A stretch of 64,000 bases of DNA from Eledone cirrhosa (Eukaryota): contig OZ024757.1 of NCBI GenBank assembly GCA_964016885.1, positions 27,094,001 through 27,158,000 on the forward strand, written 5' to 3'. Numbering within the stretch: the stretch's first letter is position 1; every line of letters starts with the position of its first letter. This document shows positions 6,953 to 36,003 of this stretch, in pieces. The notes under the pieces are model-generated. The model did not search any database. It saw only the letters and a program-made list of their open reading frames with translations, and was not told where the DNA came from. The position numbers were made by a program, and so were the translations under genes.

Positions 6953-6998
6953 ATGTCATCACTTGGTCTCTTAACCGGACGGCTAGCCCTGGTCACAG
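6953..6998 (+). CDS. HSD17B8: HSD17B8-like exon 1 (MSSLGLLTGRLALVTG)
   Basis: ATG at 6953; phase-1 donor CAG|gtgaag at 6999. Confidence 0.85.
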
Positions 6999-9900
6999 GT
7001 GAAGTTATATTAACCCTCTTAACATCAATTTATATTGAATTTAGTCGCGTTTTATGTCGTGTAAACACAATCTCATCGAACTAAAATATGTTTTTAGATG
7101 TTCGTAAAGTCTTCGATCTCCCTTTTCATATTTTTGTTTGTTTTCCTTTCTTTTTAACCAGAATTTCAGCGTGGTTCTATGAAGCGTATCGGCCTGTGTT
7201 AAAAAGTTCCCAACCATTTAAATTAATAAAATTCCAACATAATTTGATATAAGCACTTATATGTTACAAATACTATCTTAATATTGAAATAATTAATACA
7301 GTTACTGTAACGAAAAACTTTACGACCTTAATATTTATTTTCGCTTAACATTGGACTTTGATCCGGCTATTTGACATTGCTGTGATAACTGTTTTTACCC
7401 TTTCGTTACCATACTTCTAATGAAAGTCACTGCGTATAATGTTCAAATAATTTTGAAAAATAACCAAGGATTTGGAGGGATTTTTTAAAAAATACTTATA
7501 AATATACATAAAAGAAGCACTAAAAACTGGCATATATTTTATAAGTGTTTGGACTCCTGGTGCTTGATGGTGTCGAAGATGCACTGTCGTGAAATATGGA
7601 CAACTTAAACCTGGCGGAGCCCACCCCTATCTTTGGATCTGAACACAGCTAATTTCTTCCAGAAAAGGACAGAGAATTATATATAGAGAGGAACAATTGA
7701 CTATGGTACTGGACTGGTGTTTTTTTACCGATCTTAACGGATGAAAGGCAAAGTTGACCTCAATGGCATTTCAACTCAGAGATGGCAACGAATAGCGCAA
7801 ATCATTCTATCAGAAGTTCTAACAACCCTACAAATTCGCCTCCTAATTATTTCATTATTAAGATACTAACTTAAAATACGGTTCTTAGTTAAAATAATGT
7901 TGGAAGATTTTGATTTAAAATGAGGGTGTTTTTTTTATCTCGTAGAACCCCTGAGGTGGTTTTGCGAGGGTTGGTATTAAAAAGTATTAACGGACTGGTG
8001 CCCCTTACCTAAGATCTCTTAGATGCAACCTCATGGGAGGCTGATTAAACTGATGCAGGTGTGAGCTATAACAACAAATCGTTAACTATCGCTTTAGTAG
8101 TATGTTGTGTGACTTCACCACAGCAACAATGGGAGACGGTGTTAGTTAAAAATACCACCTAACTCTACCTTTTAAATAATCAATGAGAAAATGGTGATTT
8201 CAAGTCGTGTAATCTTTATAAGTTAGGTCACAGCCTAATCTTTCAACTTAATACCGTGTCTAATCTGCAACAACTTTATATTTCTCCTGCTGTCTTTGAT
8301 AAACACGTTTTTATACTTGTCTTCTTAGTAAAGTAATCTTGGATTTTCTTTAAATTGTTGCTGCTGTTGTTGTCGTAGTAGTGGAAGTGGTCTTCTTCTT
8401 CTTCTTCTTCTTCTTCTCAATGTATTACTCTCACACACGTACACATGTGTATGATATACATCATCATCACTGTTTAACTTCCATTTTTCCACGCTAGCAT
8501 GGGTTAGACGAGTTGTCCTGTTGTGAATCAAGTCAGGTCAGATGACAGTGTCTTGCTGACACAGAACTGTTTCTGGTTTGGTTTCTACAGCTGGATGCCC
8601 TTCCTAACACCAAAAGCATTTACAGTGAGTGCTGGGTGCTTTTTGTTGTGTCACCAATATAACCACTTTACGTATATATATTACAGTTATCATTATAATC
8701 ACGCTCAGAGTTGCTGAAGCATGGAACAAACTACCTGCATCAGTTGTTAGCTGCTGGGACACTGCATCCTTTAAAACCTCCATGATTCCTGAAATTCGCC
8801 AACACTACACCTGATACCCCCCTCCATACACACACTTGTATATCATGACTCATACACTGTTCACTTTCATTTGTACATTATTCTATGTACTATACATGCA
8901 GCTTTGAAGAGTTGTAGTGCAACTGAGCACTGTACACAATAATTTCATTATATTATATTATATTATATTATATATACATACTAGCAGAGGTACCCGGCGT
9001 TGCTTGGGTATTAAATAGCAGTTGTGTATAACATTTATGTCAATACTTCAGTGCTGCTTCGAAAACTATACTTTTACAAAATCATCGGCTTTTTCCAAAA
9101 GGGGGTTCCTGCCCCCAGGGGTCCCCTACTCAATATGTGCCAATTCTGAGAGTTCACATTCATCTGTAGGACAAACGTAGCCTATGTGTCAAGTTTTGTG
9201 AAAATCGGTTGCGAACTCCAGAAGTTATGACGTTTTGTTGCATTGCACTGCAGTTCTTCAGTCGACTCCAAGGAAGTGGTTAAAGGGGGTTATCTGCCAG
9301 GAGGCCCTATAATCAATATCTGGAAAAATTAAAGTGCCCATGACCATCCGGAGTATGTCTTAAGTTTGGTGAAAATATTGTAGAAATGCATAAGGTTTAT
9401 GTGCGTGTGGGTGTGTATGTATTTGTGTGTGCGTATGTATGTGTATGTCCATCGGGGCATATGTATGTACTGGCCTAAATCTTCACTATTTACTTTTACA
9501 ATTTTAATAACCTCTGTCATTTTCGTTTTCAATTTTATTTACATCATTTTTAAACTCCGGGGCTGGAAATCATTCTGTTATTTTAAATAGAGTATTAGTC
9601 TAACGACTCCATTTATACCATAAACTTGGTCTTGTCTTTGCATGAAATTGTTCTTCTCGCTCCACATAACAACGTATTATCCTCGCCTTTTTCCCGTTCA
9701 TTGCCAGGGAACGTCTTCACGAACCAAAATATCGTCTTCCTGTTTTCGTTCGGTTGGAACGTTTCTCAAAATATTTACTTCTGTGTTCACAGATTACTCT
9801 CAGTTCAATTTGAATGGGAAATTCCTGTTTCATCGAATTTCTCCGTAACCATGGAAGCTTGTAGCTTGAAAGTCGACCCAACGCCTCCTCGGGTCATTCT

Positions 9901-12900
9901 GCATAACTGTGTAAATTTTTGCTGCCTTCCACCAAGCCGTTTCGACGTTTATCCGACTACACCTACTTACTTAAATATACAACTTCCAATTTATATAGTA
10001 GATATTATGTTTATTGTATACTAGCAGTGGTACCCGGCGTTACACGGGATAAGGTATTTTGGAATGCGGGCTGCCAACAGACCTAATCGTGGAAAAACTG
10101 CATGCCTAGATGAGCTTATTATATGTTTTCATACACACATATCTAGGGCGGGTAAAATTCTCGAGATCCATGGACGAGTTCTCCCCAGCGGTCTCTGTCC
10201 CTCATCATCGCTGCCATGTCCTGCATCTTCAAGAGACCAGTGTCTGTCCTTAGGGCATCAACATATGTCAACCTCTTGCAGTGTGTCCATGCAGGGGCTC
10301 CCACAGGAGCATTGAGTGTAGTGTCAACTCTGGATGTCGGTGAGCATGTCCAGCTAACCTCAGTCTCCTCTGTGTTACTTTTGAGCTGATTTTTATATAT
10401 ATGTGAGTTAGTGTATTTATATAAATACACACACAATGGACTAAAAGTCAGGAAGAGGTCAAGATGTAATGTGATCTGGCTTGTCTAACCTATGCTTGCT
10501 TGGAAAAATGGATGTTAAATGATGATGATGATATCTATCTATCATCTATCTATCTATGATAATTGTAACTCTCATAACATATATTGCATATGTTTTTAAT
10601 TACATAGTCATTGCCCTTCCTTTTTTAAAGTATGAATATTAACTTGAACATATATATATCCATGCCGAGGTAAACATATATGTTTTGTGCTTGTTTAATT
10701 AACTGCAGTGTTGTTCAATTGTAGTCAGGTTGAATTTTAAATAATTTATGTTCTAATTCAGTGAATTTCAATAAGTTTCTCCACTTACTGAAGCAAGCTG
10801 GCGCCATTTCGCTGTCTAGTCATGACTCTGACTGGCACACAAGCACATACACACACACAAACGCACTCTGTTGTCGGTGCCACAGTTACAGCCACATGAC
10901 AATATTCTACATACACTTAGTGATCCTCTCATCACTACCTTCTGCAAGTAGGGTGAAGTCTGTCTTTCACTGATGAGGTTTAATTAACATGAAACATATC
11001 CTGGGTCGTCTCCCCTACTTGTTGAAATAGTTAAAATGAGTGTATCCCTGTGTCGTAAGAAGCGATTAAAAAGGTTAATGTTAAGAAAAACATTTAGCTG
11101 TAACACATTACTTCAAAAATTCCTATCCAACTCATACCAGCATGGAAAAATTGATCCCAAAATGATGATAATGATGATGATTAAGCTATTTCTATTTGGA
11201 TTTTTTTTGTTCACCACATTAACTATCATCATCATCATTATCAATGTTTTACTTCCATTTCTTCCACGCTAGCGTGGGTTAGACAAGTTGTCCTGTCATG
11301 GGCAATGCTAGGTCAGGTGACTATGCTTTGCTCATACAGAACTGATTTGGGCTTGGTCTCTATGGCTAGATGCCCTTCCTAACACCGACTTCATTTACAG
11401 TGAGTACTGGGTGCTTTTTGTCATGACACCTCCATGACCATTTTACAGTGATTACTGGGTACTTTTTGTCATGACACCTCCATGACCATTTTACAGTGAT
11501 TACTGGGTACTTTTTGTCATGATTCCTCCATGACCATTTTACAGTGTGGACTGGGGGCTTTTTGTCATGACACCTACACAACCACTATTGTTTTTCATGC
11601 AGATGTTGTCACTGAGTAATTAGCATCAGTGATTTATTGTTTTAACTCTTAACATTTTGTAGGAATTCAACAGAAAATGTCTAAAAACATGTTTATTTAT
11701 TCAAATATTTATATCTTTATTAGTGGATAAATTTGTAGTAAGTTAAATCTAAGGAACAAAATTTGTTTTCGCTCTTAACATGGTGGATACTTAGATGTAT
11801 TTGTGAGTGAATGATAATAATAATTGTTTCCTTTTTTGGCACAAGTCCAGCAATTACCCCAGTATTCAGCTGGTACTTTATTTTATCAACCTCGTAAAAA
11901 TGAAAGGCAAAGTTAACCGTGGCGGGATTTGTACTCAGACCGCAAAGGGCCGTAACTCTATGCTGCAAAGTATGGCGTCCGACCATCTACCGATTCTGCC
12001 AATCCACTAAATAATAATTGTTCCTACTATAGGCACAAGGCCAGCAATTTGAAGGGGGCGGGGTAAGTCAATTAAATCGACTCCTGTGCATTACTGGTGC
12101 TTTATTTTATCGGTTAACCTCAGCGGGATTTGGACTCAGACCATAAAGGGCCATAACTTTATGCTGCAAAGCATGGTGTCTGACGCTCCACCGATACTGC
12201 CAATAATAATAATTGTTTCTATTTTTGGCACAAGGCCAGCAATTCACCAGTACATTACTGGTACTTTATTTTATCGACCCCGTAAGGATGAAAGGCAAAG
12301 TTAACCTCGGCGGAATTTGAACTCAGATCATAAAGGGACGTAACTCTATGCTTCAAAGCATGGTGTCCGACTCTCTACCGATACTGCCAATAATACATTG
12401 GCACAAGGGGAAGAGGAAAGTCAACCAAATTGGTTCCAGTTAGTTACTTGTACATTATTTTAGCAACTCTGTAAAGATGAAATGCAAAGCGGGATTTGAA
12501 CTCAGAACAAAACATAATGGTTTCTAATTTAAAGCACAAGGCCTGCAATTTGGGAGATGGAGGAGAAATAGATTATGTTGACCTTAGTGTTCAGCTGGTA
12601 CTTTATTTTATCAACCTAGGAAGGATGAAAGCTAAAGTTAACCTCTGTGGGATTTGAACTCAAGAGGTAAAGAGCTGTAACTAAATAGCACGCGGCATTT
12701 CGTTTGATGCTCTACCAGTTCTGCCAATTCATTACCCTATAGTAATAACAATGATAATAATTTCCTTGGTTTCAGACAATAGTATTTACACCTCACCACC
12801 AAAAACTTCTAGATATAAATACATAACATTCTTTCTTGTAATTCTGTTTTTATATCTTTGCATCTCTCACCCTTGTAGACCAGCGTTCATTGTCTACTGA

Positions 12901-13062
12901 TATATATATATATATATATATGTGTGTATGTGTGTGTGTTTATATATATATATGGTAGCAAATGTGTTTGGAATATATATATATATGTATTATAATATAT
13001 AGTAAGCAAGCTAGCAGGCCAAGCAAAATGGAGAGGGGCTTCTGTTGGTATTTTATCAAATT

Positions 13063-13110
<48 letters not shown>

Positions 13111-14400
13111 TGTACATATATGCACATATGCACGCGTGTTTGTGTGTATGTATGTTGTGTGTGCGTATATATATATATATATATATAAATAATAAAAAAA
13201 GTGAGTGCACTGGAAAAACAAACATTCCCTTCGCCACAGTCAATCTCTGGAGATCACTATAGTTTCAGTTTATTAAGGTTGATACTATTTATTCCAGTGC
13301 ACATTGTGATGCAATAAAACAGATAGACACAGGACAAGTTGTTCCTTTTGGCGAATATATATATAATGGACTCTCCTGTCGATTTGATGTATGCGGGTTC
13401 AACAGTCTTTTCAGTTGTTTTATGTTTATACCTCAAATGGCACTTCAATCCAGCTGCTGATTTACACATGAATCCGTATGTATTTGGTGAGGTGACAGGA
13501 TCTCGAACAGAGCAGGCTGGAATGCCTGACCGGACTTTCGTGTTAGATCTTATCTCACGGAGCTGGGCTAAACAAGATTTCTCAAAGTTCTTTTACCTTT
13601 ATGGCAGACAGGTCTCCAGCTTTTACGGTATATATATATAAATAAACATGATATTAAATTACATTTTTGTATGTGTTATTGAGAATATTACAGGAGTCAC
13701 TTAAATGCCTAGAATTTCGTGCTCAGGCACTTAAAAAGCTAGTAATAGAAAAAACAAAATAGGGTTGTTTATATAGCATATGAATGGGAAGTTAAGAAAA
13801 AATATACGATTAATGTCATTGTGTTTTCAGTACATAAATTTGAAGACTTGTTGATATATAATGTGGATGTGAGATGCAGCATCTATCTGTAAATATATGT
13901 ATCTGATAACAGTATCATTATGAATGTGGTGTATATATTAATATATATATATCATCATGATCATCACCGTTTTACGTCCATTCTTCCATGCTAGCATGGG
14001 TTAGACGGGTTGTCCTGTTGTCGGCAGTGTCTAGTCAGCAGACCATGCCTTGCTCATACAGGAACTGATTTTGGCTTGATTTCTACAGCTGGATGCCCTT
14101 CCTAACACTAACCTCATTTACAGTGATTATATATATATAGAGTATATATATATTACAGTGAGCATATATATATATATATAGTGAAAAATGGAACGGGAAC
14201 AAAACAGAGATATATAAAACAGGGTATATATATATATATATATACCCTTCATAATAGTATCCTTATATATGTGTTGTATATTTATGCACAGTAAGATGGA
14301 CACACACACAGACATATATATATGTATGTATATATGTATGTATATATATATGTATATACGTATATATACATATATATATACATACACACATATATATGTG

Positions 14401-14460
<60 letters not shown>

Positions 14461-16204
14461 CATACACACACACACAATATCTTAGGCATCTCTTTACTGT
14501 TTGCTGACGTGGAAGTCCTTGGCACCTCAGTCTTCATATTTTCCTGAAATGTGTTGCCTTGTTCAACATACTCAGCTGTACAGTTCTACATAAGGAGCTT
14601 TATACAAACACCACCTCACTTTCTTTCTTTCCTCTTTCATACACACACACACACACACTCTCATCCCATACCCCCCCCCCCCCCGGCCACCCCCTCTCCA
14701 TATATACATTGTTTCATGTGACTCGGTGTCATAGTAAACAGGGTGAAATTATGTGCTGGAGGAATTGTGTTTTCCTGTTTGCCAATAATCATAAGATTGA
14801 CGGTTTCTACTTTAGGCACAAGGCCAGCAATTTGAAGGGAAGGGGTAAGTCGATCAATTCCACCCCTGTGTATTACTGGTACTTTATTTTAGCGACCCCG
14901 TAAAGATTAAAAGCAAAGCTAACTTTGGCGGGATTTGAACTCAGAATGTAAAGGGTTGTAACTATATGCCACAAAGCATGTTGTCCAATGCTCTACCGAT
15001 ACTGCTAATCAAAATAAGAATAGTAATAGCAGTAATACTGATTTAGGCACAAGGCCAACAATTTTAGGGGGGGGGGGGAAGACAATTAAATTGATCCCCA
15101 GTGCATTACTGGTACTTTATTTTATCGACTCCGTAAGGATGAAAGGCAAAACTAACCTCAACGAGATTTGAAATCAGAATGTAAAGGACTGTAACTATAT
15201 GCCACAAAGCATGGTGTCTGATGCTCCACCGATTCTGATAGTTAAGGTGGACTGAGATAATGAAGAGTAAAATGTATCACCACAGAGACATTGTGAGGTG
15301 AGATAAATCTCTCATGGGACATGACACTAGTTTATCACAGGTAACATTCTCTAGATGATCTGGGGGTATTTATTGACAGGTTAACTGAGGTAATGTATAA
15401 CAAAGTGTACCTCCACAGAGATTTGGACCCATGATCTAAGACTTTCATTACCATATTTTTAATAATAGACACTGTCTGTGGTTTCTGAATAATAATGAAA
15501 ATAGTAAAAAAATTTGTAAGATTTACTCATGTAACTAACTTTCTCGTGATTAACCCTTTAGCATTTACATTACTCTATATTTACTATTGTATTTTCAGGG
15601 CTTTATCTTACATAATTATCTCGCATAATATCGAATCTATGAGATTTTGATATTATTTGTTTTGAGAATGATACCTTAACATAAGTATGAGCAGCCGGTT
15701 ATTGCTAATTTGAACAGAAAGAGGTGAAAGAATTCTGACCGTCTACAGTCGGTTTAAGTGCTAAAACAGATACCCCCTACACACACAAGACAGACACCCC
15801 ACACACAACAGACACCCCACACACACACAATACTGACACCCCCCTACACACACACTTGTGTGTGTAGGGGGTATCTGTGTTGTGTGTGTGTGGGGTGTCT
15901 GTTGTGTGTAGGGAGGTGTCAGTGTTGTGTGTGTGTGGGGTGTCTGTTGTGTGTAGGGGGGTGTCAGTATTGTGTGTGTGTGGGGTGTCTGTTGTGTGTG
16001 GGGTGTCTGTCTTGTGTGTGTAGGGGGTATCTGTTTTAGCACTTAAACCGACTGGAGACGGTCAGAATTCTTTCACCTCTTTCTGTTCAAATTAGCAATA
16101 ACCGGCTGCTCATACTTATGTTAAGGTATCATTCTCAAAACAAATAATATCAAAATCTCCTTATCGAGCCCTCTTCAGATTTTAGTCTTCACATTTATTA
16201 TTAC

Positions 16205-16235
<31 letters not shown>

Positions 16236-19200
16236 ATACATACATATATATGTATGTGTATATATATTTTTTTGATTGATTTTTTGCAGTAACTCAAATA
16301 TCAATCTCCTACTTAAACAAAGTATGTGTATCTTAGCAACTGATCTCCAACAAAAGACTTAATTGATGTGTGAGAGAGAGAGAGAGAGTGAAAGTTTTAT
16401 TGACAGAGAAAGTTGAGCTGATTGATTGAGGTGCTAAAAGTACCTGCAACCTTTTTTACTCTAGACCACCTAAAACTGACTCCCCCCCACCCCACCCCAG
16501 CCTTCCAGGTTCTATGACACAACTGTTTAAAGTGTTCATGTTTATTAGATAAACACTATCTGACACCTATACTATAGTAAGGGCACTGAAAATTGGAATA
16601 TTATCATAGATTCAGTACAACACTCATCTGTTGTGTGTAGGGGGGTGTCTGTGTTGTGTGTGTGTGGGGTGTCTCTTGTCTGTAGGGGGGGGTGTCTGTG
16701 TTGTGTGTAGGGGGTGTCTGTTGTGTGTAGGGGGGTGTCTGTGTTGTGTGTGTGTGGGGTGTCTCTTGTCTGTAGGGGGGGTGTCTGTGTTGTGTGTAGG
16801 GGGGTGTCAGTGTTGTGTGTGTGTGGGGTGTCTGTTGTGTGTAGGGGGGTGTCAGTATTGTGTGTGTGTGGGGTGTCTGTCTTGTGTGTGTAGGGGGTAT
16901 CTGTGTTGTGTGTGTGTGGGGTGTCTGTTGTGTGTAGGGAGGTGTCAGTGTTGTGTGTGTGTGGGGTGTCTGTTGTGTGTAGGGGGGTGTCAGTATTGTG
17001 TGTGTGTGGGGGGTGTCTGTCTTGTGTGTGTAGGGGGTGTCTGTGTTGTGTGTGTGGGGGGGTGTCTGTTGTGTGTAGGGGGGTGTCAGTGTTGTGTGTG
17101 TGTGTGGGGTGTCTGTTGTGTGTAGGGAGGTGTCAGTGTTGTGTGTGTGTGTGGGGTGTCTGTGTTGTGTGTGTGTGGGTTATCTGTGTTGTGTGTGTTG
17201 TGTGTGTGGGTTATCTGTGTTGTGTGTGTGGGGGGTGTCTGTGTTGTGTGTATGTGTGTAGGGGGTGTCTGTGTTGTGTGTGTAGGGGGTGTATGTGTGT
17301 GTGTGGGGGGGGGATCGGTGTTGTGTGTGTGTGTAAACAGTTATGCATGCTCAGCCATAAACAACAAGAACAAACATCACTACAACCACCACCAACAACC
17401 ACACCACCACCATCACTACCACCAACACTGCTACCACCCCTAGCACCATCACTACCATCAACAAAGTCACCATCAACAATAACCACACCACTACCATCAC
17501 ACCACCACCACTACCATCAACACAGTCACCATCAACAACAACCACACCACTACCACCACCACTACCAACACCATCACTACCACCACCACCACCACCACTA
17601 CCATCAACACAGTCACCATCAACAACAACCACACCACCACCACTACCACCACCACTACCATCACCATCACTACCACCCCTACCACCTACAACAATAACAA
17701 TAGTTGGCTGTGAGCTATGTAGGACACATTTAGTTGTAATGTTATTGGCTTTGAAAAGCAGCTTAAACCAGCCGGATCTGGTTTACAGAAGAAATATTGT
17801 GTTATATATTCTTATATCACGATGAGATAATATATTTATTGGGGTTATCTCTCAAAACAGGAAGGAGAAAGGGGAGGGATTAACCCCTGTTAAGAGCTGC
17901 AGTGATGTCTTTTAGTCCAAGAGAGAAGGGCTGTGCTCATGGCTCTTTTCAGGGCATCTGAAAGTCATGGGAGGGTGGAATCTATCTTTATTTAAACTGG
18001 AGATCTGATTCTCAAATGCTTGCAACAGAGTATGGTAAAGACCCCCTTCAGTCATGAAAGACCATGGGATTTGTACCTAGAAAGTTCCCCTCTGAGGCAC
18101 AAGTCCAGGCAAGGTTGTTTGTGGAAGATCAGCTGTTGCCCATGCATACCGGCCTCTCCTCTTCACGCCACCGGTGTTGACCATTCGAAAGGCACTGACC
18201 CATACAGCTTGGCACCAGTGACATAAAATGTCTTGCTCAAGAATACAATGCACTATGTCCAAGAATCGAACTCACAACCTCCTGATTGCAAACCCAATGC
18301 TCTAACACTAAGCCATGCTCCTTCACACAGCAGTCTCTGCTAAGGCCATCAAAAGTTCAGGTGTATTTATCAGAGATGTTTCACTTGATAAGTTGTAGGG
18401 TGATGGAAGTGATTAGAGTGAATTTACACCTTGCACATGAATGTACAACAGAAGTTGGCAATAGGTGTTCACTGTGTGCCTCAGACCTTTTAAAATGTTT
18501 ATATGTAAGATATGATATAATATACATATGGGCTATTGTGGTATTCTCGGTGGGCCTCTGACCTTTTAACCCTTTAGAATTTACATTACTCTATATATAC
18601 TATTATATTTTCACAATAAAGGCTTTATCTTACATAATTATCTCACAAAATGAATAACATTAAAATCTACGAAATTTTGATGTTATTTGTTTTGAGAACA
18701 ATACCTTAATGTAGGTATGAGCAGCCAGTTACAGCCGCTTTGAACAGAAAGAGGTGAGAGAGTTCTGGTCAGATATGGCTGGTTTAAATGCTAAAGGGTT
18801 AAATTGTTTATATGTAAGATATAATAAAATAGACATATGGGCCATTGATGTGTTTTCTGTGGCCTTCTTAAATTGCTTATATGTAAGATACAATATAAAA
18901 TACATAGGCTTCAGACCTTTTCAAATGCATATGACAAAATATACATGTTGGCCATTGATGTGTTCTCACAACAAGAAATGATACTGCTGAAGTAGATCCA
19001 ACCTGGAGATGACACCCCTCCTTGTGGCTCTCTTCCCAGAGCTGAGAGTGCTCTACTGTTGGGTCTATGACCAACAACCTCTCTAGTGATGGTGCCATGA
19101 AAATGCACCCGCTAGACTCTGTAAGGGTGTTTGGTGACAGGAAGAGCACCCCATTGTAGAAACCATGCCTGAAAGGGTTGAGAGGACCCTTTAGTTGTGT

Positions 19201-22200
19201 CAACCTTACAACATCTTTACTTCACAACACCATCTCACATCTTAATACCACAATATCTCAGAACCATCAACCTCACAACTGTTGATATCTAATCTTTATC
19301 TTGCTACTCAGGTGCTGCAAGTGGTATTGGTCGCAGCATATGCCAGGTGTTTGCACGTGAAGGGGCCAAGATTGCAGCTGTCGATATCAATATGGTAGGA
19401 CTAGAGCAGACCCTGAAAACATTGAAGGCTTCTTCTCCAGGTATTTATTGTTGGTGAAACCTTCAACATCATCATCATTGTTATGGCTGTCGTAGTCATC
19501 ACCACCACCATCATCATTATCATCATTACCATCATTATCACCAACACCACCTTCATTATCACCACCATCAACACCACCACCACCACCACCATCATCACCA
19601 CCACCCTCGTCACCATCACCTCCACCACCACCACCATCATCACTACCACCCTCATCACCACCACCCTCGTCACCATCACCTCCACCATCATCACCATCAC
19701 CCCCACCACCACCACCATCATCACTACCACCCTCATCACCACCATCACCCTCTTCACTGTTATCATCACCGTTTAACGTCTATTTTCCACCCTTGTATGG
19801 GTTAGATGAATTATCACATACAGAGGCTGGACTGGTGAGGTATCTACAATTTCACATCCATTTTCTATACTAGCATGGGTTGGACAGGTCACTGTTAACT
19901 GAGCCAGTTCATATTTAGAGTTAACTGCCCTGCTAGATGGGTTACAGGTCCAGATCTGATTGGTTTGTTCCAGTTATGGCATAGTTTCTACAGCTGGAGA
20001 GATCCTGTGATGGAGTAGACTCATCTAACCCATGGGAAAATGGTCGTAAAAATGATGATAATTATGTAATATCACCGATACTATGTGATATTGTTGATAA
20101 ATATCAAAAACAAAATTTGTTTTCCCTCTAACATGGTGGATACCTAAATGTATTTGTGAGGGAATAATAATTGTTTCTACTTTTGGCACAAGGCCAGCAA
20201 TTAACCATTGTATTACTGGTACTTTATTTTATCAACCCTGTAAGGATGAAAGGCAAAGTTAACCTCGGCGGGATTTGAACTGAGACCATAAAGGGCCGTA
20301 ACTCTTTGCTGCAAAGCATGGCGTCCGACCCTCTTAATAATATTATTGTGAACGAGACCTGGGCATTACTGTCAACAGCGATTCGCGTTGGACGAAGCAC
20401 ATCTTTAAAATTGTCAAGAAGGCCAAGAGTGTCTTAGCATCACTCAGCAAGACCTTTGTCAGCCGCTCTCCAGCTATCTATTTAAACGTGTACATAGCTA
20501 TGGTGCGGCCACACTTTGAATTTGCATCACCAGTCTGGAACCCCTATCTTGCTCAGAACATTGACCTCAGGCATCTACCATACTCTGAACACCTTGCTTC
20601 TCTGAGCATGGATACATTGAAGCGCTGATGTCTGGCAACTGACTTGGTAAACACCCACAAAATGATTATCTTGCCAACAACAACCCTGAGCATCTTTTTG
20701 ATTTCCATGTCTCTAACACACGTGGACATGCCTACAAAGTCAGAAAACAGCACAGCTCCCATGACTTTCGGAAACATTATTTCACGCTCAGAGTTGCTGA
20801 AGTATGGAACAAACTACCTGCATCTGTTGTTAGCTGCCGAGACACTGCATCCTTTAAAACCTCCATGCTTCCTGAGATTCGCCAACACTACACCTAATGT
20901 CCCCCTTCCATACACATGCACACATGTATATATCATGACTCATACACTATTCACTTCCCTGACATTTGTATATTACCCTATGTACTATACATGCACCCTT
21001 GAGGAGTTGTAGTGCACCTGAGCACTGTACACAATAATTTCATTATTATTATTAATATTTGGTTTATTTGCAAGCAGACAGCCTCATAAACACCATGTGT
21101 GTTTTCTAGATGACAATGTCATCCTTTTGTTCTAGCGGTAACTGAGAGAAAACAGTTGACAATTGTTTCGGAGTTGTTGCTCCTTATCAAGACTGTATTT
21201 TTATTGTTGCTACCTGCTGGAACTGCTGAGAATACATACTATTCTCAAATGTATACATTGGTTGATTAGCCTAATTTGCATACTGAGCGATTTTACTGCC
21301 AGCTTATAATTACATCATCAGATATCTTTTTGCCTATACAGGTAAAATTCTGTTATAACGAATACTTCAGAAAAACAAAATTTTTTTCAATCACTGAGGT
21401 AATAACAACGAAATGCTCGATGTGTTTCAGTTGATCTCGTTATAAAGAATTTTTCGTTTCAATGAATTTTTTTTCATACGCCATGAATTTCGTTATTGTG
21501 GAATTTCACTGTATATAATTCTACTTGTAGGGGACCACCATGCATTCCCAACTGATATCTCCCTGCCTAAGTCAGTGACACAGATGGTGGAGCATGTGAC
21601 CACACAGTTCCAACAAACACCATCCATAGCTGTTAACAGTGCTGGCATTATCCGCGACAATCTCCTTCTACGCACTACTGATGAAGAATTTGATAAAGTC
21701 ATTAATGTCAACTTAAAGGTTTGTTTCTTGGTATCTTCTGTGGTTATTGTGGAAGTAGAGTTTATGTTATTGTGGAAGTAGAGTTTGTGTTATTGTGGAA
21801 ATAGAAGTTGTGTTATTGTGGAAGTAGAGTTTGTGTTATTGTGGAAATAGAGTTTGTGTTATTTTAGAAATAGAGTTTGTGTTATTGTGGAAGTAGAGTT
21901 TGTGTTATTTTGGAAGTAGAGTTTATGTTATTGTGGAAATAGGGTTTGTGTTATTGTGGAAGCAGAGTTTGTGTTATTGTGGAAGTAGAGTTTGTGTTAT
22001 TGTGGAAGTAGAGTTTGTGTTATTGTGGAAGTAGAGTTTGTGTTATTTTGGAAGTAGAGTTTGTGTTATTGTGGAAGTAGAGTTTGTGTTATTGTGGAAG
22101 TAGAGGTTGTGTTATTGTGGAAATAGAGTTTGTGTTATTGTGGAAGTAGAGTTTGTGTTATTGTGGAAGTAGAGTTTGTGTTATTGTGGAAGTAGAGTTT

Positions 22201-25200
22201 GTGTTATTGTGGAAGCAGAGTTTGTGTTATTGTGGAAGTAGAGGTTGTGTTATTGTGGAAATAGAGTTTGTGTTATTGTGGAAGTAGAGTTTGTGTTATT
22301 GTGGAAGTAGAGGTTGTGTTATTGTGGAAGCAGAGTTTGTGTTATTGTGGAAGTAGAGGTTGTGTTATTGTGGAAATAGAGTTTGTGTTATTGTGGAAGT
22401 AGAGTTTGTGTTATTGTGGAAATAGAGTTTGTGTTATTGTGGAAGTAGAGGTTGTGTTATTTTGGAAGTAGAGTTTGTGTTATTGTGGAAGTAGAGTTTG
22501 TGTTATTGTGGAAGTAGAGTTTATGTTATTGTGGAAGTAGAGTTTGTGTTATTGTGGAAATAGAGTTTGTGTTATTGTGGAAGTAGAGTTTGTGTTATTG
22601 TGGAAGTAGAGTTTATGTTATTGTGGAAGTAGCGGTTGTGTTATTGTGGAAGTATAGTTTGTGTTATTGTGGAAATAGAGTTTGTGTTATTGTGGAAGTA
22701 GAGTTTGTGTTATTGTGGAAGTAGAGTTTGTGTTATTGTGGAAGTAGAGTTTATGTTATTGTGGAAGTAGAGTATGTGTTATTGTGGAAGTAGAGTTTGT
22801 GTTATTGTGGAAGTAGAGTTTGTGTTATTGTGGAAGTAGAGTTTATGTTATTGTGGAAGTAGAGTTTATGTTATTGTGGAAGTAGAGTTTGTGTTATTGT
22901 GGAAATAGAGTTTGTGTTATTGTGGAAGTAGAGTTTGTGTTATTGTGGAAGTAGAGTTTATGTTATTGTGGAAGTAGCGGTTGTGTTATTGTGGAAGTAG
23001 AGTTTGTGTTATTGTGGAAATAGAGTTTGTGTTATTGTGGAAGTAGAGTTTGTGTTATTGTGGAAGTAGAGGTTGTGTTATTGTGGAAGTAGAGTTTGTG
23101 TTATTGTGGAAATAGGGTTTGTGTTATTGTGGAAGTAGAGTTTGTGTTATTGTGGAAGTAGAGTTTATGTTATTGTGGAAGTAGAGTTTGTGTTATTGTG
23201 GAAGTAGAGTTTGTGTTATTGTGGAAGTAGAGTTTGTGTTATTGTGGAAATAGGGTTTGTGTTATTGTGGAAGTAGAGTTTGTGTTATTGTGGAAGTAGG
23301 GTTTATGTTATTGTGGAAGTAGAGTTTGTGTTATTGTGGAAATAGAGTTTGTGTTATTGTGGAAATAGGGTGGCTTATTGTGGAAACTGTATGTGATATT
23401 GAGAAAGTAGAGAGTGTTATTGTAAAAGTACTGAGGAGTAACAACTGTTGTGATAGAGCATAATGTAGTGATGTGGTGTTTGGTCTCATAGTAGTGAGTG
23501 GTGTAGTGTGTGGTAGATAGTAGTGAGTGGTGTAGTGTTTGGTCTATAGTAGTGTGTGGTCTTGTAGTAGTGAGTGGTGTAGTGTAGTGTTTGGTCTATA
23601 GTAGTGTGTGGTATATAGTTGTGAGTGGTGTAGTGTTTGGTCTATAGTAGTGTGTGGTCTCATAGTAGTGAGTAGTGTAGTGTTTGGTCTATAGTAGTGT
23701 GTCGTCTCGTAGTAGTGTGTGGTATATAGTAGTGAGTGGTGTAGTGTTTCGTCTATCGTAGTGTGTGGTCTTGTAGTAGTGAGTGGTCTCATAGTAGTGA
23801 GTGATGTGGTGGAAGTAGTAAGTCCCACCATGTCTTATGCAGAAGTAGTGTATGATGAAGCTTCTATTGCTGGTGTATTTATTGCCTAGAATTCCTGTCA
23901 ACTTTTTATAGATGTTTTATATGTAGAAACCTGATGAGATTGGAAGATTTTTACTGTAGTTGTGATTTAAAAACTATGATATTATTGTATCTGTTGACAG
24001 GGTACATATCTCGTAATGAAGGCTGTGGCTACACTAATGATAAATAAGCAGATTGAGTGTGGGTCCATCATCAATCTTGCAAGTATTGTTGGAAAGGTAA
24101 GGAAAATAGTAGGATTGATCTCCACTTTATCCACTGGCTGGATACAGCTGGTTTAAAGGCTAAAGAGTTAACCTTGTGGGTGCTATAGCAATCTTCATAT
24201 TCATTTGTGGGGTCCTTCTTGAGGCAATCAATGTTCCATGGCAGAATGTCCTTTTTGATGCTTAACCCTTTCAGTTGCTTCTTTAGACCAGGAATATGGT
24301 CTACCTATTCTAGAAACTGGGGTGACAGCAATTATAGCTTCAATATTGGTCAGACAATTAAAATTTGATATGCAGTAATGTTTTAATAATTTAGTATTAT
24401 TAGTGGTTGAAGGTGTGTGGCCTTGTAGTTAGAGTATTGGACTCACAATCATACTGTTGTAGATTCAATTCTTCGACTGAGTGGTGTGTTGTGTTCTCGA
24501 GCAAACACTTTATTTCATGTTGCTTTTCATGATAGAGTGAATCCCTTCCTTTCATTAAAACACCCCCAAAAACTTCCTATGAGTTGTAACATTGTTTTTT
24601 GTTTGTTTTACATTATTTGTAGTATTAGTAAAATTGTTATATATTTTGTATGTGACTGTAGTGTGGCAACATCGGACAGTGCAATTATGCAGCATCAAAA
24701 GCTGGAGTTGAAGGATTAAGTAAATCTGCTGCAAAAGAACTTTCCAGGTAAATTCTGTTCCTATATCTCAACATAACTTCCCAGGTAAATTCTGTTCCTA
24801 TATCTCAACATAACTTCCCAGGTAAATTCTGTTCCTATATCTCACCATAACTTTCCAGGTAAATTCTGTTCCTATATCTCAACATAACTTTCCAGGTAAA
24901 TTCTGTTCCTATATCCCAACATAACTTTCCAGGTAAATTCTGTTCCTATATCTCACCATAACTTTCCAGGTAAATTCTGTTCCTATATCTCACCATAACT
25001 TCCCAGGTAAATTCTGTTCCTATATCTCACCATAACTTTCCAGGTAAATTCTGTTCCTATATCTCACCATAACTTCCCAGGTAAATTCTGTTCCTATATC
25101 TCAACATAACTTTCCAGATAAATTCTGTTCCTATATCTCACCATAACTTTCCAGGTAAATTCTGTTCCTATATCTCAACATAACTTCCCAGGTAAATTCT

Positions 25201-27307
25201 GTTCCTATATCTCAACATAACTTTCCAGGTAAATTCTGTTCCTATATCTCAACATAACTTTCCAGGTAAATTCTGTTCCTATATCTCAACATAACTTTCC
25301 AGGTAAATTCTGTTCCTATATCTCAACATAACTTCCCAGGTAAATTCTGTTCCTATATCTCAACATAACTTTCCAGGTAAATTCTGTTCCTATATCTCAA
25401 CATAACTTTCCAGGTAAATTCTGTTCCTATATCTCAACATAACTTTCCAGGTAAATTCTGTTCCTATATCTCAACATAACTTCCCAGGTAAATTCTGTTC
25501 CTATATCTCAACATAACTTTCCAGATAAATTCTGTTCCTATATCCCAACATAACTTCCCAGGTAAATTCTGTTCCTATATCTCAACATAACTTTCCAGGT
25601 AAATTCTGTTCCTATATCTCAACATAACTTTCCAGATAAATTCTGTTCCTATATCTCAACATAACTTTCCAGGTAAATTCTGTTCCTATATCTCACCATA
25701 ACTTTCCAGGTAAATTCTGTTCCTATATCCCAACATAACTTTCCAGGTAAATTCTGTTCCTATATCTCACCATAACTTTCCAGGTAAATTCTGTTCCTAT
25801 ATCTCAACATAACTTCCCAGGTAAATTCTGTTCCTATATCTCAACATAACTTTCCAGGTAAATTCTGTTCCTATATCTCACCATAACTTTCCAGGTAAAT
25901 TCTGTTCCTATATCTCAACATAACTTTCCAGGTAAATTCTGTTCCTATATCTCAACATAACTTTCCAGGTAAATTCTGTTCCTATATCCCAACATAACTT
26001 TCCAGGTAAATTCTGTTCCTATATCTCAACATAACTTTCCAGGTAAATTCTGTTCCTATATCTCACCATAACTTTCCAGGTAAATTCTGTTCCTATATCT
26101 CAACATAACTTTCCAGGTAAATTCTGTTCCTATATCTCAACATAACTTTCCAGGTAAATTCTGTTCCTATATCTCAACATAACTTTCCAGGTAAATTCTG
26201 TTCCTATATCCCATGACTTTCAGAAACATTTTTTCACACTTAGAGTTGCTGAAGCATGGAACAAGCTACCAATATCGGTTTTTAGCTGTTTGGACACTGC
26301 ATTCATCAAAACTTCCATGCTTCCTGAAATAAGACAACACTACACCTGATATTTCCCCTCCATAAACACTCACGCATGTATCTGTGTGTATATCATGACT
26401 CATACATTTTATATGCTATACATGCACCTTTGATGAGTTGTAGTGCACTTGAGCACTGTACACACTAATTTTCATTATTATTATTATATCTCAATATAAA
26501 GGCAGTGGATTGGCAGTATCTGCAGAGGATCGGACGATGTGTTTTGCAGCATAGAGTTATGGCCCTTTATGATCTGAATTCAAATTGCGTCGAGGTTAAC
26601 TTTGCCTTTCATCCTTACGGGGTCGATAAAATAAAGTACCAGTAATGCACTGAGATAATTGCTGGCCTTGTGCCAAAAGTAGAAACAATTATATCTCAAT
26701 ATAAGGCGGTGGATTGACAGAATCGGTAGAGCGTCAGACACCCTGCTTCTTGGCATAGAGTCACGGCCCTTTACATTCTGAGTTCGAATCCCGCCAAGGT
26801 TAGCTTTGCCTTTCATCCTTACGGGGTCGATGAAATAAAGTAGCAGTAATGCACTGGGGTCGATATAATCGACTTTCCCCTTCCCCCAAATTACTGGCCT
26901 TGTGCCTATAGTAGAAATAATTGTTATATCTCAATATAAATTTTAGGTAAATTTTGTTTCCATATTTTAACCTTTTAATACTGGAAGAGGAAATAAAGAA
27001 AGGCGATGTACAAGACAAGTTTTTACTCATCGCTGTATTTGACAGCGTTGAGCTGTTTTAACGGCTATAATAGCGATGAAATTTCTCATTTTTTATGTAA
27101 TATGACATGTAGTTAATGTTGAATTTAATTACTGTCATGTTTGTTACAGGTTCAATATCCGTGTCAACTCCGTCTTGCCAGGATTTATTGCTACACCCAT
27201 GACAGGTACAGTTCCAGAGACATTTCTACAGAATCTCGTCAAACAAATTCCACTACGACGACTTGGAACTCCTGAAGGTTTGTGATAGTTATTCTGTACA
27301 TATATGC

Positions 27308-27346
<39 letters not shown>

Positions 27347-30300
27347 TGTGTGCATACGTACACACACGTGCACTTACATACAAACGCACATGCATAATTG
27401 CTTTATCCTACCTACATAGAGAGAGAGAGAGATCTCATTGATATATGTGATGTATCTGTGTAGGCTCACTTACATGTGATATCTCAGTTATCTCACTCAC
27501 ATATATGTGTGTAGTATCACATATATGTGTGTAGTATCATATCCAAGTTATCTATTTAAAGCTGTATTTGTATTCGCATCATCAGTCTGGAACCCCTATC
27601 TTGCTCAGAACATTGACCTCCTGGAAACTGTTCAGAGACGTGCAACCAAGAAAATACCCTCCATCAGGCATCTACCATACTCTGAACGCCTTGCTTCCCT
27701 GGGCATGGATACATTGAAGCTCCGACGTCTGGCAATGGACTTGGTAAACACCCACAAAATTATTAACCATCTTGCCAACAACAACCCTGAGTACCTTTTT
27801 GATTTCCATGTGTCTAACACACGTGGACATGCCTACAAAGTCAGAAAACAGCACAGCTCCCATGACTTTCGGAAACATTTTTTCACACGCAGAGTTGCTG
27901 AAGCATGGAACAAACTCCCTGCATCAGTTATTAGCTGTCGGGACACTGCATCCTTTAAAACCTCCATGGAACAAACTACCTGCATCAGTTGTTAGCTGTT
28001 GGGACACTGCATCCTTTTAAAACCTCCATGGAACAAACTCCCTGCATCAGTTGTTAGCTGTCGAGACACTGCATCATTTAAAACCTCCATGGAACAAACT
28101 ACCTGCATCGGTTGTTAGCTGTCGAGACACTGCATCCTTTAAAACCTCCATGGAACAAACTACTTGCATCGGTTGTTAGCTGTCGAGACACTGCATCCTT
28201 TAACACCTCCATGGAACAAACTACCTGCATCAGTTGTTAGCTGTCGAGACACTGCATCCTTTAAAACCTCCATGGAACAAACTACCTGCATCGGTTGTTA
28301 GCTGCCGAGACACTGCATCCTTTAAAACCTCCATGGAACAAACTACCTGCATCAGTTGTTAGCTGCCGAGACACTGCATCCTTTAACACCTCCATGGAAC
28401 AAACTACCTGCATCGGTTGTTAGCTGTCGAGACACTGCATCCTTTAAAACCTCCATGGAACAAACTACCTGCATCAGTTGTTAGCTGCCGAGACACTGCA
28501 TCCTTTAACACCTCCATGCTTCCTGAGATTCGCCAACTCTGCACCTAATATTCCCCCTCCATACACACGGACATATGTATTTCATGACTCATACATTGTT
28601 CAGTTTCCTGACATTTGAACATTATTCTATGTACTATACATGCACTCACACACCTGTGTAGTCTCACTCATATGTAATATATATGTGTAGTTTTACTCAT
28701 ATGTAATATATATCTGTGTAGTCTTACTCGGATATATCTCTATTATGCCACTCATGTCAGCTGTCTATTCTGTGTAATTTCACTCACCTGTGTAACTAGT
28801 ACACCACACAAACAACTTTCTCCTTAGTTCTGCAGCCCCTCCCTGGCAGGCTTCATACACCTCATGGGGTCCTTTTTTAGTAACCTTTCACAACATACAG
28901 AAATATGGTATAGTTGTCATCATCACTATTTAACATTCATTTTTCCATGCTAGCATGGGTTAGATATGTTGTCCTGTTGTGAGACAAACCAGATCAGATT
29001 ACTGTGTCTTTCTCACACAGAACTGTTTCTGGCTTGGTTTATATGGCTGGGTACTCTTCCTAATGCCCAGAACATTTATAGTGTGGACTGGGCACTTTTT
29101 GTTGTGTCACCAACACAACCACTTTACAGTGTGTATTGGGTGCTTTTTATTGTGGCACTAAAGCGACCACATTACAGTGTGGGCTGGGCACTTTTTGTCA
29201 TGTTAGCAACAATGCTACTTGACAGTGTTGGCTTGGCATTTTTGTCATGTCATCAACAAGGTCACTTTCTTTAGCGGTGTAACTATAGTAACCTGGATAC
29301 ATATTGCAAAGCTAATTATATGATATACATCCCATTCAACTATAAACCACCTCTATAGATATTCAACTATTTCTTTATTTTCTTTTGTATTTTATTTTAT
29401 AATTTCAGATGTTGCTGAAGTCTGTTTATTTTTAGCTTCTAAACGCAGTGCATATATAACTGGGGCTTCTATAGAGGTTACAGGTTAGTTTATATTATAA
29501 TTGTTATAGACACATCATCATTTCACATCCATTTATGGTTTCACCGATTACTGGTCCAATTAGTGGTCATAGATTTTCTCCATTGTAATTATGTATTGTG
29601 ATAGGAAAATATGTATTATAATGTATGTATGGACCTGTAACTCTTGATGGAGTAGTAGGGGCGCCACATTAACATATGGCATATTTAAAAATCTGGCAGA
29701 GGTCCACTGCTATAGATATGATGATAGATCTATTGGAAAGTGGCTGTAAACATTTCCTAATATATTGTAATATAGGCAGCAAATTGGCAAAGTTGTTAAA
29801 GTGTTGGATAAGTGTTTGGTTTGTGCTCTCTACGAGTTAAAATCCCACTGAGGACAACTTTGTCTTTCATCTTTTCAAGGTTGATAAAAAAAGTACCACT
29901 CCAGTTCCAGTTACAGACTATGTAAGAGGGATCTATTGTAGCCCTGTATTACTAGGTACAGACTATGTAAGAGGGAGCTATTGTAGCCCTGTATTACTAG
30001 GTACAGACTATGTAAGAGGGATCTATTGTAGCCCTGTATTACTAGGTACAGATTATGTAAGAGGGATCTATTGTAGCCCTGTATTACTAGGTACAGACTA
30101 TGTAAGAGGGATCTATTGTAGCCCTGTATTACTAGGTACAGACTATGTAATAGGGAGCTATTGTAGCCCTGTATTACTAGGTACAGACTATGTAAGAGGG
30201 AGCTATTGTAGCCCTGTATTACTAGGTACAGACTATGTAAGAGGGAGCTATTGTAGCCCTGTATTACTAGGTACAGACTATGTAAGAGGGAACTATTGTA

Positions 30301-30819
30301 GCCCTGTATTACTAGGTACAGATTATGTAAGAGGGAACTATTGTAGCCCTGTATTACTAGGTACAGACTATGTAAGAGGGAGCTATTGTAGCCCTGTATT
30401 ACTAGGTACAGACTATGTAAGAGGGAGCTATTGTAGCCCTGTATTACTAGGTACAGACTATGTAAGAGGGAACTATTGTAGCCCTGTATTACTAGGTACA
30501 GATTATGTAAGAGGGAACTATTGTAGCCCTGTATTACTAGGTACAGATTATGTAAGAGGGAACTATTGTAGCCCTATATTACTAGGCACAGATTATGTAA
30601 GAGGAAGCTATTGTAGCCCTGTATTACTAGGTACAGACTATGTAAGAGGGAACTATTGTAGCCCTATATTACTAGGTACAGATTATGTAAGAGGGAACTA
30701 TTGTAGCCCTGTATTACTGGGTAATCATTTCTGTCACACTACACTTGCCTACAATATATTTTCTACACAGTGTTTAATTAAACATTTTTTTGCCTTTATT
30801 AGGTGGACTCAATTTCTAA
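6953..30819 (+). CDS. HSD17B8: Spliced gene (8 coding exons, 254 aa): classical SDR, 17-beta-hydroxysteroid dehydrogenase type 8 / (3R)-3-hydroxyacyl-CoA dehydrogenase-like
   Basis: Exons 6953-6998, 19312-19440, 21531-21718, 24001-24096, 24662-24747, 27150-27277, 29409-29483 and 30803-30819 join in frame (765 nt) with GT-AG introns. The protein has TGAASGIG (Rossmann), an Asp after beta2 (AAVDIN, NAD preference), VNSAGI, catalytic Ser and YAASK, IRVNSVLPGFIATPMT and a C-terminal YITGASIEVTGGL as in HSD17B8. Orthology is by motif recognition, not search. Confidence 0.88.
8701..8955 (+). mobile_element. CR1/L2-type LINE 3' end
   Basis: RVAEAWNKLPASVV C-terminus, 3'UTR and (ATT)-like tail; homologous to 20352-21052. 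Confidence 0.8.
8979..10050 (+). mobile_element. Non-autonomous Helitron/Helentron-like element(s)
   Basis: Terminus actagcag.ggtacccggcgtt..cggg occurs twice (8979, 10020); internal aagttt..tgaaaatcggt motif; tatagtagat end near 10003. Confidence 0.45.
10143..10390 (-). mobile_element. RTE LINE 3' fragment (same family as 32035-33072)
   Basis: Near-identical to 32035-32280; TYVDALRTDTGL..MAAMMRDRDRW. Confidence 0.85.
11393..11578. repeat. 48-bp tandem repeat (~4 copies) within a LINE/SINE tail
   Basis: Unit ttttacagtgattactgggtactttttgtcatgacacctccatgacca. Confidence 0.8.
11822..12730 (-). mobile_element. Head-to-tail cluster of about 5 family-1 SINEs
   Basis: Repeated ggcacaaggccagcaatt...gaaaggcaaagttaacc...ctctaccgat units. 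Confidence 0.85.
14802..15240 (-). mobile_element. Two tandem family-1 SINEs
   Basis: Same diagnostic motifs as 4144-4333, reverse orientation. Confidence 0.8.
15641..16159. repeat. Intronic foldback palindrome (arms ~210 bp)
   Basis: gagattttga... mirrored by ...caaaatctc; one mismatch seen in the non-repetitive part of the arms; ORFs 15758+ and 15761- have identical N-termini. Confidence 0.92.
16628..17335. repeat. GT-rich degenerate minisatellite
   Basis: Recurring gtgtctgt(g)ttgtgtgtaggggg units. Confidence 0.9.
17355..17700. repeat. (CAC/CAT/CAA)n trinucleotide repeat
   Basis: Direct inspection; a similar tract at 19465-19770. Confidence 0.9.
18000..18322 (-). mobile_element. tRNA-derived SINE family 2
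   Basis: tgtcttgctcaagaatacaatgc...ctctaacactaagccatgctcctt head; related copies at 24410, 39760, 41390, 47490 and 63600. Confidence 0.65.
18570..18798. mobile_element. piggyBac-type MITE with TTAA TSD
   Basis: ttaa|CCCTTTAGAATTT...AAATGCTAAAGGG|ttaa; other copies at 2730, 15554 and 57167-57297. Confidence 0.85.
19312..19440 (+). CDS. HSD17B8: HSD17B8-like exon 2 (GAASGIGRSICQVFAREGAKIAAVDIN...)
   Basis: Acceptor ctcag|, donor CAG|gtattt; completes the TGxxxGIG motif. Confidence 0.92.
20170..20333 (-). mobile_element. Family-1 SINE
   Basis: Diagnostic central motif. Confidence 0.8.
20352..21052 (+). mobile_element. CR1/L2-type LINE 3' fragment
   Basis: ERDLGITVNSDSRWTKHI..YIAMVRPHFEFASPVWNPYLAQNID motifs, 3'UTR and (ATT)n tail. 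Confidence 0.85.
21153..21195 (-). ncRNA. Minimal hammerhead ribozyme-like motif (U3-A8 variant), antisense in intron 2
   Basis: Minus strand reads CAGUC-UUGAUAA-GGAG(CAACAA)CUCC-GAAA-CAAUUG-UC-AACUG, with a palindromic helix III and GUC triplet. Confidence 0.55.
21531..21718 (+). CDS. HSD17B8: HSD17B8-like exon 3 (...AVNSAGIIRDNLLL...VINVNLK)
   Basis: Acceptor ttgtag|, donor AAG|gtttgt; NSAG motif. Confidence 0.92.
21743..23386. repeat. 23-bp minisatellite (~71 copies), intron 3
   Basis: Unit gttattgtggaagtagagtttgt. Confidence 0.97.
23470..23820. repeat. Degenerate TAG/GTG-rich tandem repeat
   Basis: Recurring tagtagtgagtggtgtagtgtttggtc. Confidence 0.8.
24001..24096 (+). CDS. HSD17B8: HSD17B8-like exon 4 (GTYLVMKAVA...GSIINLASIVGK)
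   Basis: Acceptor tgacag|, donor AAG|gtaagg; contains the catalytic Ser. Confidence 0.92.
24662..24747 (+). CDS. HSD17B8: HSD17B8-like exon 5 (CGNIGQCNYAASKAGVEGLSKSAAKELS)
   Basis: Acceptor ctgtag|, donor CAG|gtaaat; YxxxK active-site motif. Confidence 0.93.
24738..26211 (+). repeat. 37-bp minisatellite (~40 copies) made from the exon5/intron5 junction
   Basis: Unit aactttccag|gtaaattctgttcctatatctcaacat; the first unit overlaps the real donor. Confidence 0.97.
26212..26485 (+). mobile_element. CR1/L2-type LINE 3' end
   Basis: catgactttcagaaacatttt... homologous to 27860 onward; (ATT)n tail. Confidence 0.85.
26500..26922 (+). mobile_element. Two tandem family-1 SINEs separated and flanked by tatatctcaatataa
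   Basis: SINEs at 26500-26690 and 26704-26922; the 15-mer recurs at about 26484, 26690 and 26925. Confidence 0.85.
27150..27277 (+). CDS. HSD17B8: HSD17B8-like exon 6 (FNIRVNSVLPGFIATPMT...RRLGTPE)
   Basis: Acceptor ttacag|, donor AAG|gtttgt; frame consistent. Confidence 0.93.
27545..28645 (+). mobile_element. CR1/L2-type LINE 3' fragment with an internal 61-bp tandem expansion
   Basis: VWNPYLAQNIDLLETVQRRATKKIP..YSERLASLGMDTLKLRRL..RVAEAWNKLP; ~10 units of 61 bp at 27904-28518. Confidence 0.9.
29409..29483 (+). CDS. HSD17B8: HSD17B8-like exon 7 (DVAEVCLFLASKRSAYITGASIEVT)
   Basis: Acceptor tttcag|, donor CAG|gttagt. Confidence 0.92.
29912..30722. repeat. 45-bp minisatellite (~18 copies), intron 7
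   Basis: Unit gtacagactatgtaagagggagctattgtagccctgtattactag. Confidence 0.97.
30803..30819 (+). CDS. HSD17B8: HSD17B8-like exon 8 (GGLNF-stop)
   Basis: Polypyrimidine tract plus ttag|, then GT GGA CTC AAT TTC TAA, completing the family's VTGGL ending. Confidence 0.8.
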
Positions 30820-33072: not shown

Positions 33073-33389
33073 ATATATATCAGTATATATGTGTGTGTAT
33101 ATGTATCTGTATGTATTTATATTTTTAAGCAATACATCATGTTTACAACACAATCCAAATTATTAGAGGTATCCATCAGAGTGGACTCGTATGGTAATTG
33201 AGGGAAATACCATTAGACTGTGTACATGCCACATATAGTAATAGATAACAACTGTCACAACTAAAAACAAAGGAGGCAAGAAATCTACATAAATACTTAC
33301 ATATTGATGGCACCACAACCTCCCTACTGTTGATAATCTTCACAATAAATGTACCAAGTACACATTTGATGAGCATATAATATGTATAT

Positions 33390-34178: not shown

Positions 34179-34180
<2 letters not shown>
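33390..34180 (-). mobile_element. RTE LINE fragment: RT with Cys/His (PHD-like) insert plus 3' tail
   Basis: GVHQGTVLSPLLF..LLYADDL..CSVCRKGVGRNSILCPKCKVWVHKRCSG..FRYLGD; (GAT)n-tailed 3' end. Confidence 0.9.
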
Positions 34181-34215
<35 letters not shown>

Positions 34216-35985: not shown

Positions 35986-36003
35986 GATATATATATATAT
36001 ATA

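Follow-up and report, generated by a model that had tools for sequence, protein, structure and literature searches.

A 37-bp minisatellite that repeats the exon 5 donor of HSD17B8 in Eledone cirrhosa, a likely by-product of tandem-repeat expansion

Do splice donors that have been copied dozens of times into the following intron regulate a gene, or are they carried along by the growth of a repeat? The question is raised by a 64,000-nucleotide stretch of the Eledone cirrhosa genome (GenBank assembly GCA_964016885.1, contig OZ024757.1, positions 27,094,001 to 27,158,000 of the forward strand; the whole stretch is called the window and is numbered from its first letter), in which a tandem array repeats the end of exon 5 of the HSD17B8 gene together with its 5' splice site. 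An earlier, sequence-only reading had described about 40 copies of a 37-bp unit, each containing the last 10 exonic nucleotides and the donor CCAG|GTAAAT, with GT changed to AT in about three of them, and this description was confirmed. Tandem Repeats Finder (TRF) placed the array at 24738-26210 with a period of 37, 39.8 copies, 96 % matches and no indels. Unit 1 (24738-24774) comprises the end of exon 5 at its positions 1-10 (24738-24747) and 27 nt of intron 5 at positions 11-37. The 40 donor positions carry 37 GT and three AT dinucleotides; CCAG|GTAAAT was counted 37 times, that is, the real donor and 36 copies, and the AT form exactly three times, in units 11, 22 and 25 (altered G at 25118, 25525 and 25636). 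The features on which the argument rests are as follows.

24662..24747, + strand: exon 5, 86 nt, which holds YAASK (residue 162) and ends in phase 2 within Arg182
24738..26210, + strand: 37-bp minisatellite, 39 complete units followed by 30 nt of a further one, with 36 extra intact donors and three GT>AT copies
24745..24753, + strand: authentic 5' splice site CAG|GTAAAT in unit 1, with 8/9 consensus matches, the junction being taken from protein alignment
27150..27277, + strand: exon 6, the sole acceptor for which the 37 donors would compete, 959 nt from the last of them

Variation among the units is confined to four of the 37 columns, namely unit position 6 (9/39 units), 11 (3), 31 (4) and 34 (10), and the pairwise difference between units averages 2.9 %. 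The units fall into eight types, which are mixed along the array and free of indels. A search for higher-order blocks in the variant order, based on words of 3-9 units that recur without overlap and contain more than two unit types, found none. In the contigs of 3/3 runs from a single sample, probably the one from which the window derives, word depth was 112-494 on the unit and 7-11 on the unique flank, which fits a real multi-copy array and gives no copy number. Contigs from the same three runs cover intron 4 uninterrupted, without an exon 4-5 joint. Two other identities for the array were rejected. The unit is not a dispersed element, as the window holds no further copy of it (matches elsewhere were 12-15 nt only, E 0.2-0.8), and the array is not coding sequence, as all frames on both strands reach a stop within 111 nt.

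The predicted host is an intact octopod HSD17B8, a classical short-chain dehydrogenase/reductase (SDR), and its extent and coding exons are given below.

6953..30819, + strand: HSD17B8 gene ((3R)-3-hydroxyacyl-CoA dehydrogenase / 17-beta-HSD8, SDR family), from the gene model, adh_short and octopod orthologs
6953-6998, 19312-19440, 21531-21718, 24001-24096, 24662-24747, 27150-27277, 29409-29483 and 30803-30819, + strand: coding exons of HSD17B8

The eight exons join into an open frame of 254 aa, 7/7 introns are GT-AG, and the Pfam family adh_short was matched in 5/5 exons scanned. The predicted protein aligns over its full length with three octopod orthologs, without a stop or frameshift, at 200/254 identical residues (79 %) with Octopus bimaculoides XP_014782299 and at 189/254 and 188/254 (both 74 %) with Octopus sinensis and Argonauta hians. 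It carries the SDR motifs TGxxxGIG at residue 15, NxAG at 94 and YxxxK at 162, and we take the YAASK of exon 5 to be the catalytic YxxxK. The best protein matches bear the name HSD17B8, and the family was assigned by matches and motifs, without a tree. The exon 5 junction was placed by protein alignment, which is gap-free there. Unit position 6, changed in nine units, corresponds in unit 1 (window position 24743) to the first base of codon Ser181, which is conserved in the octopod orthologs.

What would follow from use of a later donor can be predicted from the unit itself. As the sequence-only reading had noted, translation past the first donor runs TCC AGG TAA, with the TAA at 24749-24751; this stop lies inside unit 1, and so every later donor leads to a stop at codon 183. 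Donors 2-5, modelled singly, gave an identical 182-aa product ending in ...ELSR*, as did internal micro-exons of one to three units. Use of donor 2 would put the premature termination codon (PTC) 236 nt upstream of the last junction, and use of later donors would put it further upstream. In mammals a transcript is a substrate for nonsense-mediated decay (NMD) if its last junction lies more than 50-55 nt downstream of the PTC, and by this rule the donor-2 isoform is a predicted NMD substrate. The 182-aa isoform was absent from the Octopus orthologs (0/4 cluster members), which says little for an NMD target. A unit AG that served as an acceptor would lead to the normal mRNA when joined from donor 1, and to loss of exon 5 with a shifted frame when joined from exon 4. 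Concealment of the downstream donors by RNA structure was rejected: the fold of exon 5 plus about four units (24662-24900) is less stable than that of shuffled sequences (z +2.5, 199/200 shuffles at least as stable).

Repeats of this kind are already published. With a head-to-tail unit of 10-100 bp, a first unit that crosses a real boundary so that the donor is repeated, and an intact host, the array is, on these three features and the predicted gene model, a member of the donor-spanning minisatellites (F7/CBS type; 'mirage'), of which the cephalopod case is a further, long example. It was grouped neither with recursive splice sites nor with switches of regulated unproductive splicing (AS-NMD). 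The comparisons made here and below refer to passages of the cited papers. In intron 7 (IVS7) of human F7, a 37-bp variable number tandem repeat (VNTR) of 5-9 copies has its first unit across the exon 7 boundary (Borensztajn et al. 2006, PMC1557585); in 50 constructs the pseudo-sites proved functional yet unused, the most upstream donor was chosen, and exon skipping rose when the first usable donor was further away. The two arrays share the first unit across the exon-intron boundary, identical intronic donors, a single downstream acceptor and, by coincidence, the 37-bp unit. They differ in size, the F7 array having 5-9 units that take in 4 exonic nt each and the present one 40 units that take in 10, and in that some F7 pseudo-sites are in frame and their use was tested, whereas here each later donor would meet an immediate stop. 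The locus had been proposed as an experiment of nature on how a 5' splice site is chosen from a set of identical competitors; the competitors are indeed identical, and such a test was already made in 2006 with the F7 VNTR (PMC1557585).

The same paper reports use of the first donor only in LMNB2 and PDGF, and of the first and two more sites in CBS and 6-16 (PMC1557585); the CBS VNTR is written c.1444_1467+7(16_21) (PMC2630376). These four arrays, of which that of CBS has a 31-bp unit, resemble the present one in repeating an exon end with its donor, in 10-26 copies and with the first donor dominant, and CBS and 6-16 differ from it in that two downstream copies are used as well, whereas donor use here is predicted. 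The 25-bp VNTR in intron 18 of ABCA7 takes in the exon 18 donor, and splicing from the second copy retains one unit and leads to a PTC and NMD (De Roeck et al. 2018, PMC5954066), the product that the sequence-only reading had predicted here for any downstream donor. In ABCA7 the unit begins with the GT, and the length of the VNTR is tied to expression (lower with longer alleles), to exon 19 skipping and to disease, while VNTR length was without effect on NMD (PMC5954066); the present array is known from sequence alone. Among invertebrates, the amphioxus 'mirage' minisatellites of Adh3 and the globins BflGb6 and BflGb9 are likewise tandem duplications of exon-intron boundaries, in which many, not all, units keep the splice signals, concerted evolution takes place and splicing is reported to be undisturbed (PMC3087553). 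They belong to another phylum, their length instability has been shown, and a seed of microhomology at a LINE (long interspersed nuclear element) edge is not mentioned in the passages of PMC3087553, which call the origin unclear. A search of the literature on octopus and cephalopod repeats at title-listing level, a weak negative, found no cephalopod case, and the passages of PMC10078293 hold nothing on duplicated donors. A degenerate pattern for the exon 5 end and donor gave 0 matches in metagenome contigs.

The 3' edge of the array offers a candidate origin, as a dispersed repeat starts exactly where the array ends (26211).

26211..26480, + strand: 5'-truncated 3' end of a LINE-type retrotransposon, which abuts the array and whose first 13 nt resemble the unit junction

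Copies of this fragment lie at 20757-21048, 27858-27968 and 8699-8951 in the window and are 75-86 % identical; the repeat was assigned to a LINE 3' end from the copy at 27570-27968, which has matches to 24 proteins, 15 carrying the reverse transcriptase (RT) domain PF00078. Microhomology between the exon end and this element, about 35 nt downstream, was the likely seed of the first duplication. In intron 6, an array of 61 bp x 10 (27904-28518) was built from a slice of the same LINE and has a short direct repeat at its bounds, a sign that it arose in the way proposed for intron 5.

We consider it quite probable that the array reflects neutral repeat expansion, with the first donor dominant and at most a small, NMD-cleared leak to the next one or two donors; the array would then be a by-product of repeat growth that the gene tolerates, and no regulatory device. 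Under this reading, microhomology of the exon end with the LINE fragment would have seeded a duplication by slippage or unequal exchange, and array turnover would then have amplified the units and homogenised them to their present similarity regardless of the donor. Exon definition and 5'-to-3' scanning would commit the transcript to the most upstream donor, as in F7, and any small leak to donor 2 or 3, its PTC at least 236 nt upstream of the final junction, would be cleared by NMD as a cost and not a control. The published arrays of like anatomy, the intact and full-length gene and the variants, in which selection on the donor left no sign (below), all favour this reading. The local density of repeats is in keeping with such an origin. 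TRF arrays make up 32 % of the span of the gene, compared with 17 % for the window as a whole, and three other introns of the gene contain homogeneous arrays unrelated to the present one, of 23 bp x 71 (intron 3), 61 bp x 10 (intron 6) and 45 bp x 18 (intron 7). At such densities a given donor would be covered by a unit with a probability of roughly 0.5 % at the gene's rate of arrays or 0.2 % at the window's rate, and any of the 14 splice sites of the gene with one of roughly 8 % or 2-2.5 %, so that many donor-spanning cases per genome are expected without selection. As for the seed, of about 20,000 13-mers drawn at random from the window, all but 0.1-0.2 % fit the in-register unit junction less well than do the first 13 nt of the LINE in an independent copy (20759).

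Several points weigh against this neutral reading. First-donor use in HSD17B8 is borrowed from mammals and amphioxus. The CBS VNTR was reportedly linked to reduced activity, according to the title of a 2001 paper. Near copies are used in 3/6 human cases considered here (CBS, 6-16 and ABCA7), and with 40 units the array is longer than all five arrays treated in the F7 paper, which have 5-26 (PMC1557585). The authentic donor is strong (8/9 consensus), and exon 5 lengthened by one to three units would measure 123-197 nt, a normal exon size. Recursive splicing is reported for introns of varied size, being a minor, stochastic route in the small ones, as well as for distal exon ends (PMC10156609). 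The comparison of the LINE edge with random 13-mers is a post hoc test, chosen with the junction already seen, and such microhomology cannot separate seeding of the array from a later LINE insertion or a deletion through the same sequence. The chance figures for coverage of a splice site are rough, being built on three arrays of one gene with rates from a single window.

A copy-number modifier of dosage, by which the share of HSD17B8 pre-mRNA lost to NMD or to exon 5 skipping would grow with allele length and less enzyme would be made, is unlikely, and still less credence was given to the fuller scheme of a length-variable dial, in which every unit would act twice, as a decoy donor with an immediate stop behind it and as a recursive site of zero length by which exon 4 could skip the catalytic exon, longer alleles would undergo more NMD and GT>AT units would tune the effect down. 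A dosage modifier is consistent with the codon-183 PTC that every later donor would give, far enough upstream of the last junction, with the two pseudo-sites used in CBS and 6-16 and the rise of F7 exon skipping with distance of the first usable donor (PMC1557585), and with the one-unit retention and length-related expression of ABCA7 (PMC5954066). In the published cases considered here, though, the nearest one or two copies alone are used, and a leak of this kind is therefore independent of total length; in the closest tested analogue, ABCA7, NMD was not influenced by how long the VNTR was (PMC5954066). The dead donors are also neither enriched nor patterned. The chance that one of four variable columns hits the GT is 0.21, and AT units are absent from units 2-10, with a probability of 0.44 that none would fall there. 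Neither a purge of near decoys nor a patterned ladder was thus seen in the variant statistics of this one array, which give no sign of selection on dead donors, and the copy-number-dependent NMD rheostat proposed from the sequence finds no support in them. If length-dependent NMD did operate, the locus would be a natural tunable splicing switch, yet the ABCA7 result argues the other way.

Little room remains, too, for a recursive, or ratchet, array, in which the unit AGs serve as acceptors, GTAAAT is regenerated and the junction is spliced again, with entry from exon 5 leading to the normal mRNA and entry from exon 4 to loss of exon 5; we rate it marginally below the dial. Its strongest point, and that of the sequence-only reading, is that the minimal recursive motif Y5+N0-4+YAG|GT, as used in PMC10156609, is present in 37/37 GT units, with seven further + strand occurrences in the window. 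A TNA also lies 34 nt upstream of each unit AG, and recursive splicing is described both in introns of differing size and at the distal ends of exons (PMC10156609). The geometry that had been pointed out is thus real, but the five pyrimidines beside the CAG are coding sequence, CTT TCC for Leu180-Ser181, and the units are poor in T: positions -20 to -5 hold 5-6 T and 5-6 A in the five units scored, while the gene's seven real acceptors have 8-11 T and 2-5 A there, acceptor strength being gauged from crude base content and not from a trained model. Functional ratchet points in the fly are conserved, very strong acceptors in the longest introns (PMC6110457); here the acceptor half is weaker in T than ordinary acceptors and intron 5 is not very long, at 2402 nt, or 939 nt minus the array. 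Known recursive sites share with the units the YAG|GT and five upstream pyrimidines (PMC6110457, PMC10156609), but they are mostly single, conserved and strong and lie in long introns, whereas here there are 37 copies of a coding-exon end in a 2.4-kb intron. The geometry arises because the array copies a C-AG|GT exon end and would be general to such duplications: the un-duplicated exon 2 donor satisfies the same motif without an array, and the unrelated 45-bp array of intron 7 yields 16 YAG|GTR sites, with pyrimidine runs of four only. The ratchet array of the sequence-only reading is improbable on these grounds. Least probable of all is an assembly artefact, with an array far shorter or absent in the animal. 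The data come from one sample, and among the contigs listed none spans the array or positions 24668-24733; the depth contrast in 3/3 runs, the interspersed, indel-free unit types and the clean joint with the LINE fragment at the 3' edge all speak for a real array.

Read as neutral expansion, the locus adds a clean, long array from a cephalopod to a known kind of oddity. It could be used to ask whether 5'-to-3' donor scanning of the F7 type holds in a mollusc with 36 identical competitors, and its 3' edge, through LINE microhomology, offers a plausible origin for a class of repeats whose origin is called unclear in the passages of PMC3087553. It is also a predicted mutational liability: as 9/39 units are altered at the Ser181 base and three have a dead donor, gene conversion of such changes into unit 1 would damage the gene.

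The neighbouring introns and flanks gave further observations. The annotated isoform X2 of O. bimaculoides (211 aa) lacks precisely exon 2 (43 aa), and the exon 2 donor in the window (19430-19442) fits Y5+YAG|GT, the layout of 'distal exonic' recursive sites. The 23-bp x 71 array of intron 3 (21743-23368) begins 25 nt past the exon 3 donor and, together with repeats at 23467-23803, fills most of that intron, with a strong skew of G over C. In intron 7, each unit of the 45-bp x 18 array (29912-30723) holds a second donor-like GTAAGA, and one + strand frame (29841-30845) runs for 334 codons without a stop, which is likely a matter of chance, given a unit length divisible by 3. Members of a 30-bp repeat family lie, in both orientations, at 37608-37822, 50869-51186 and 53876-54261. 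By eye, frames at 32150-33128, 33577-34266, 35741-36085 and 52827-53504 resemble fragments of retrotransposons with reverse transcriptase, and frames at 35911-36478 resemble remnants of a mariner-type transposase interrupted by an AT microsatellite.

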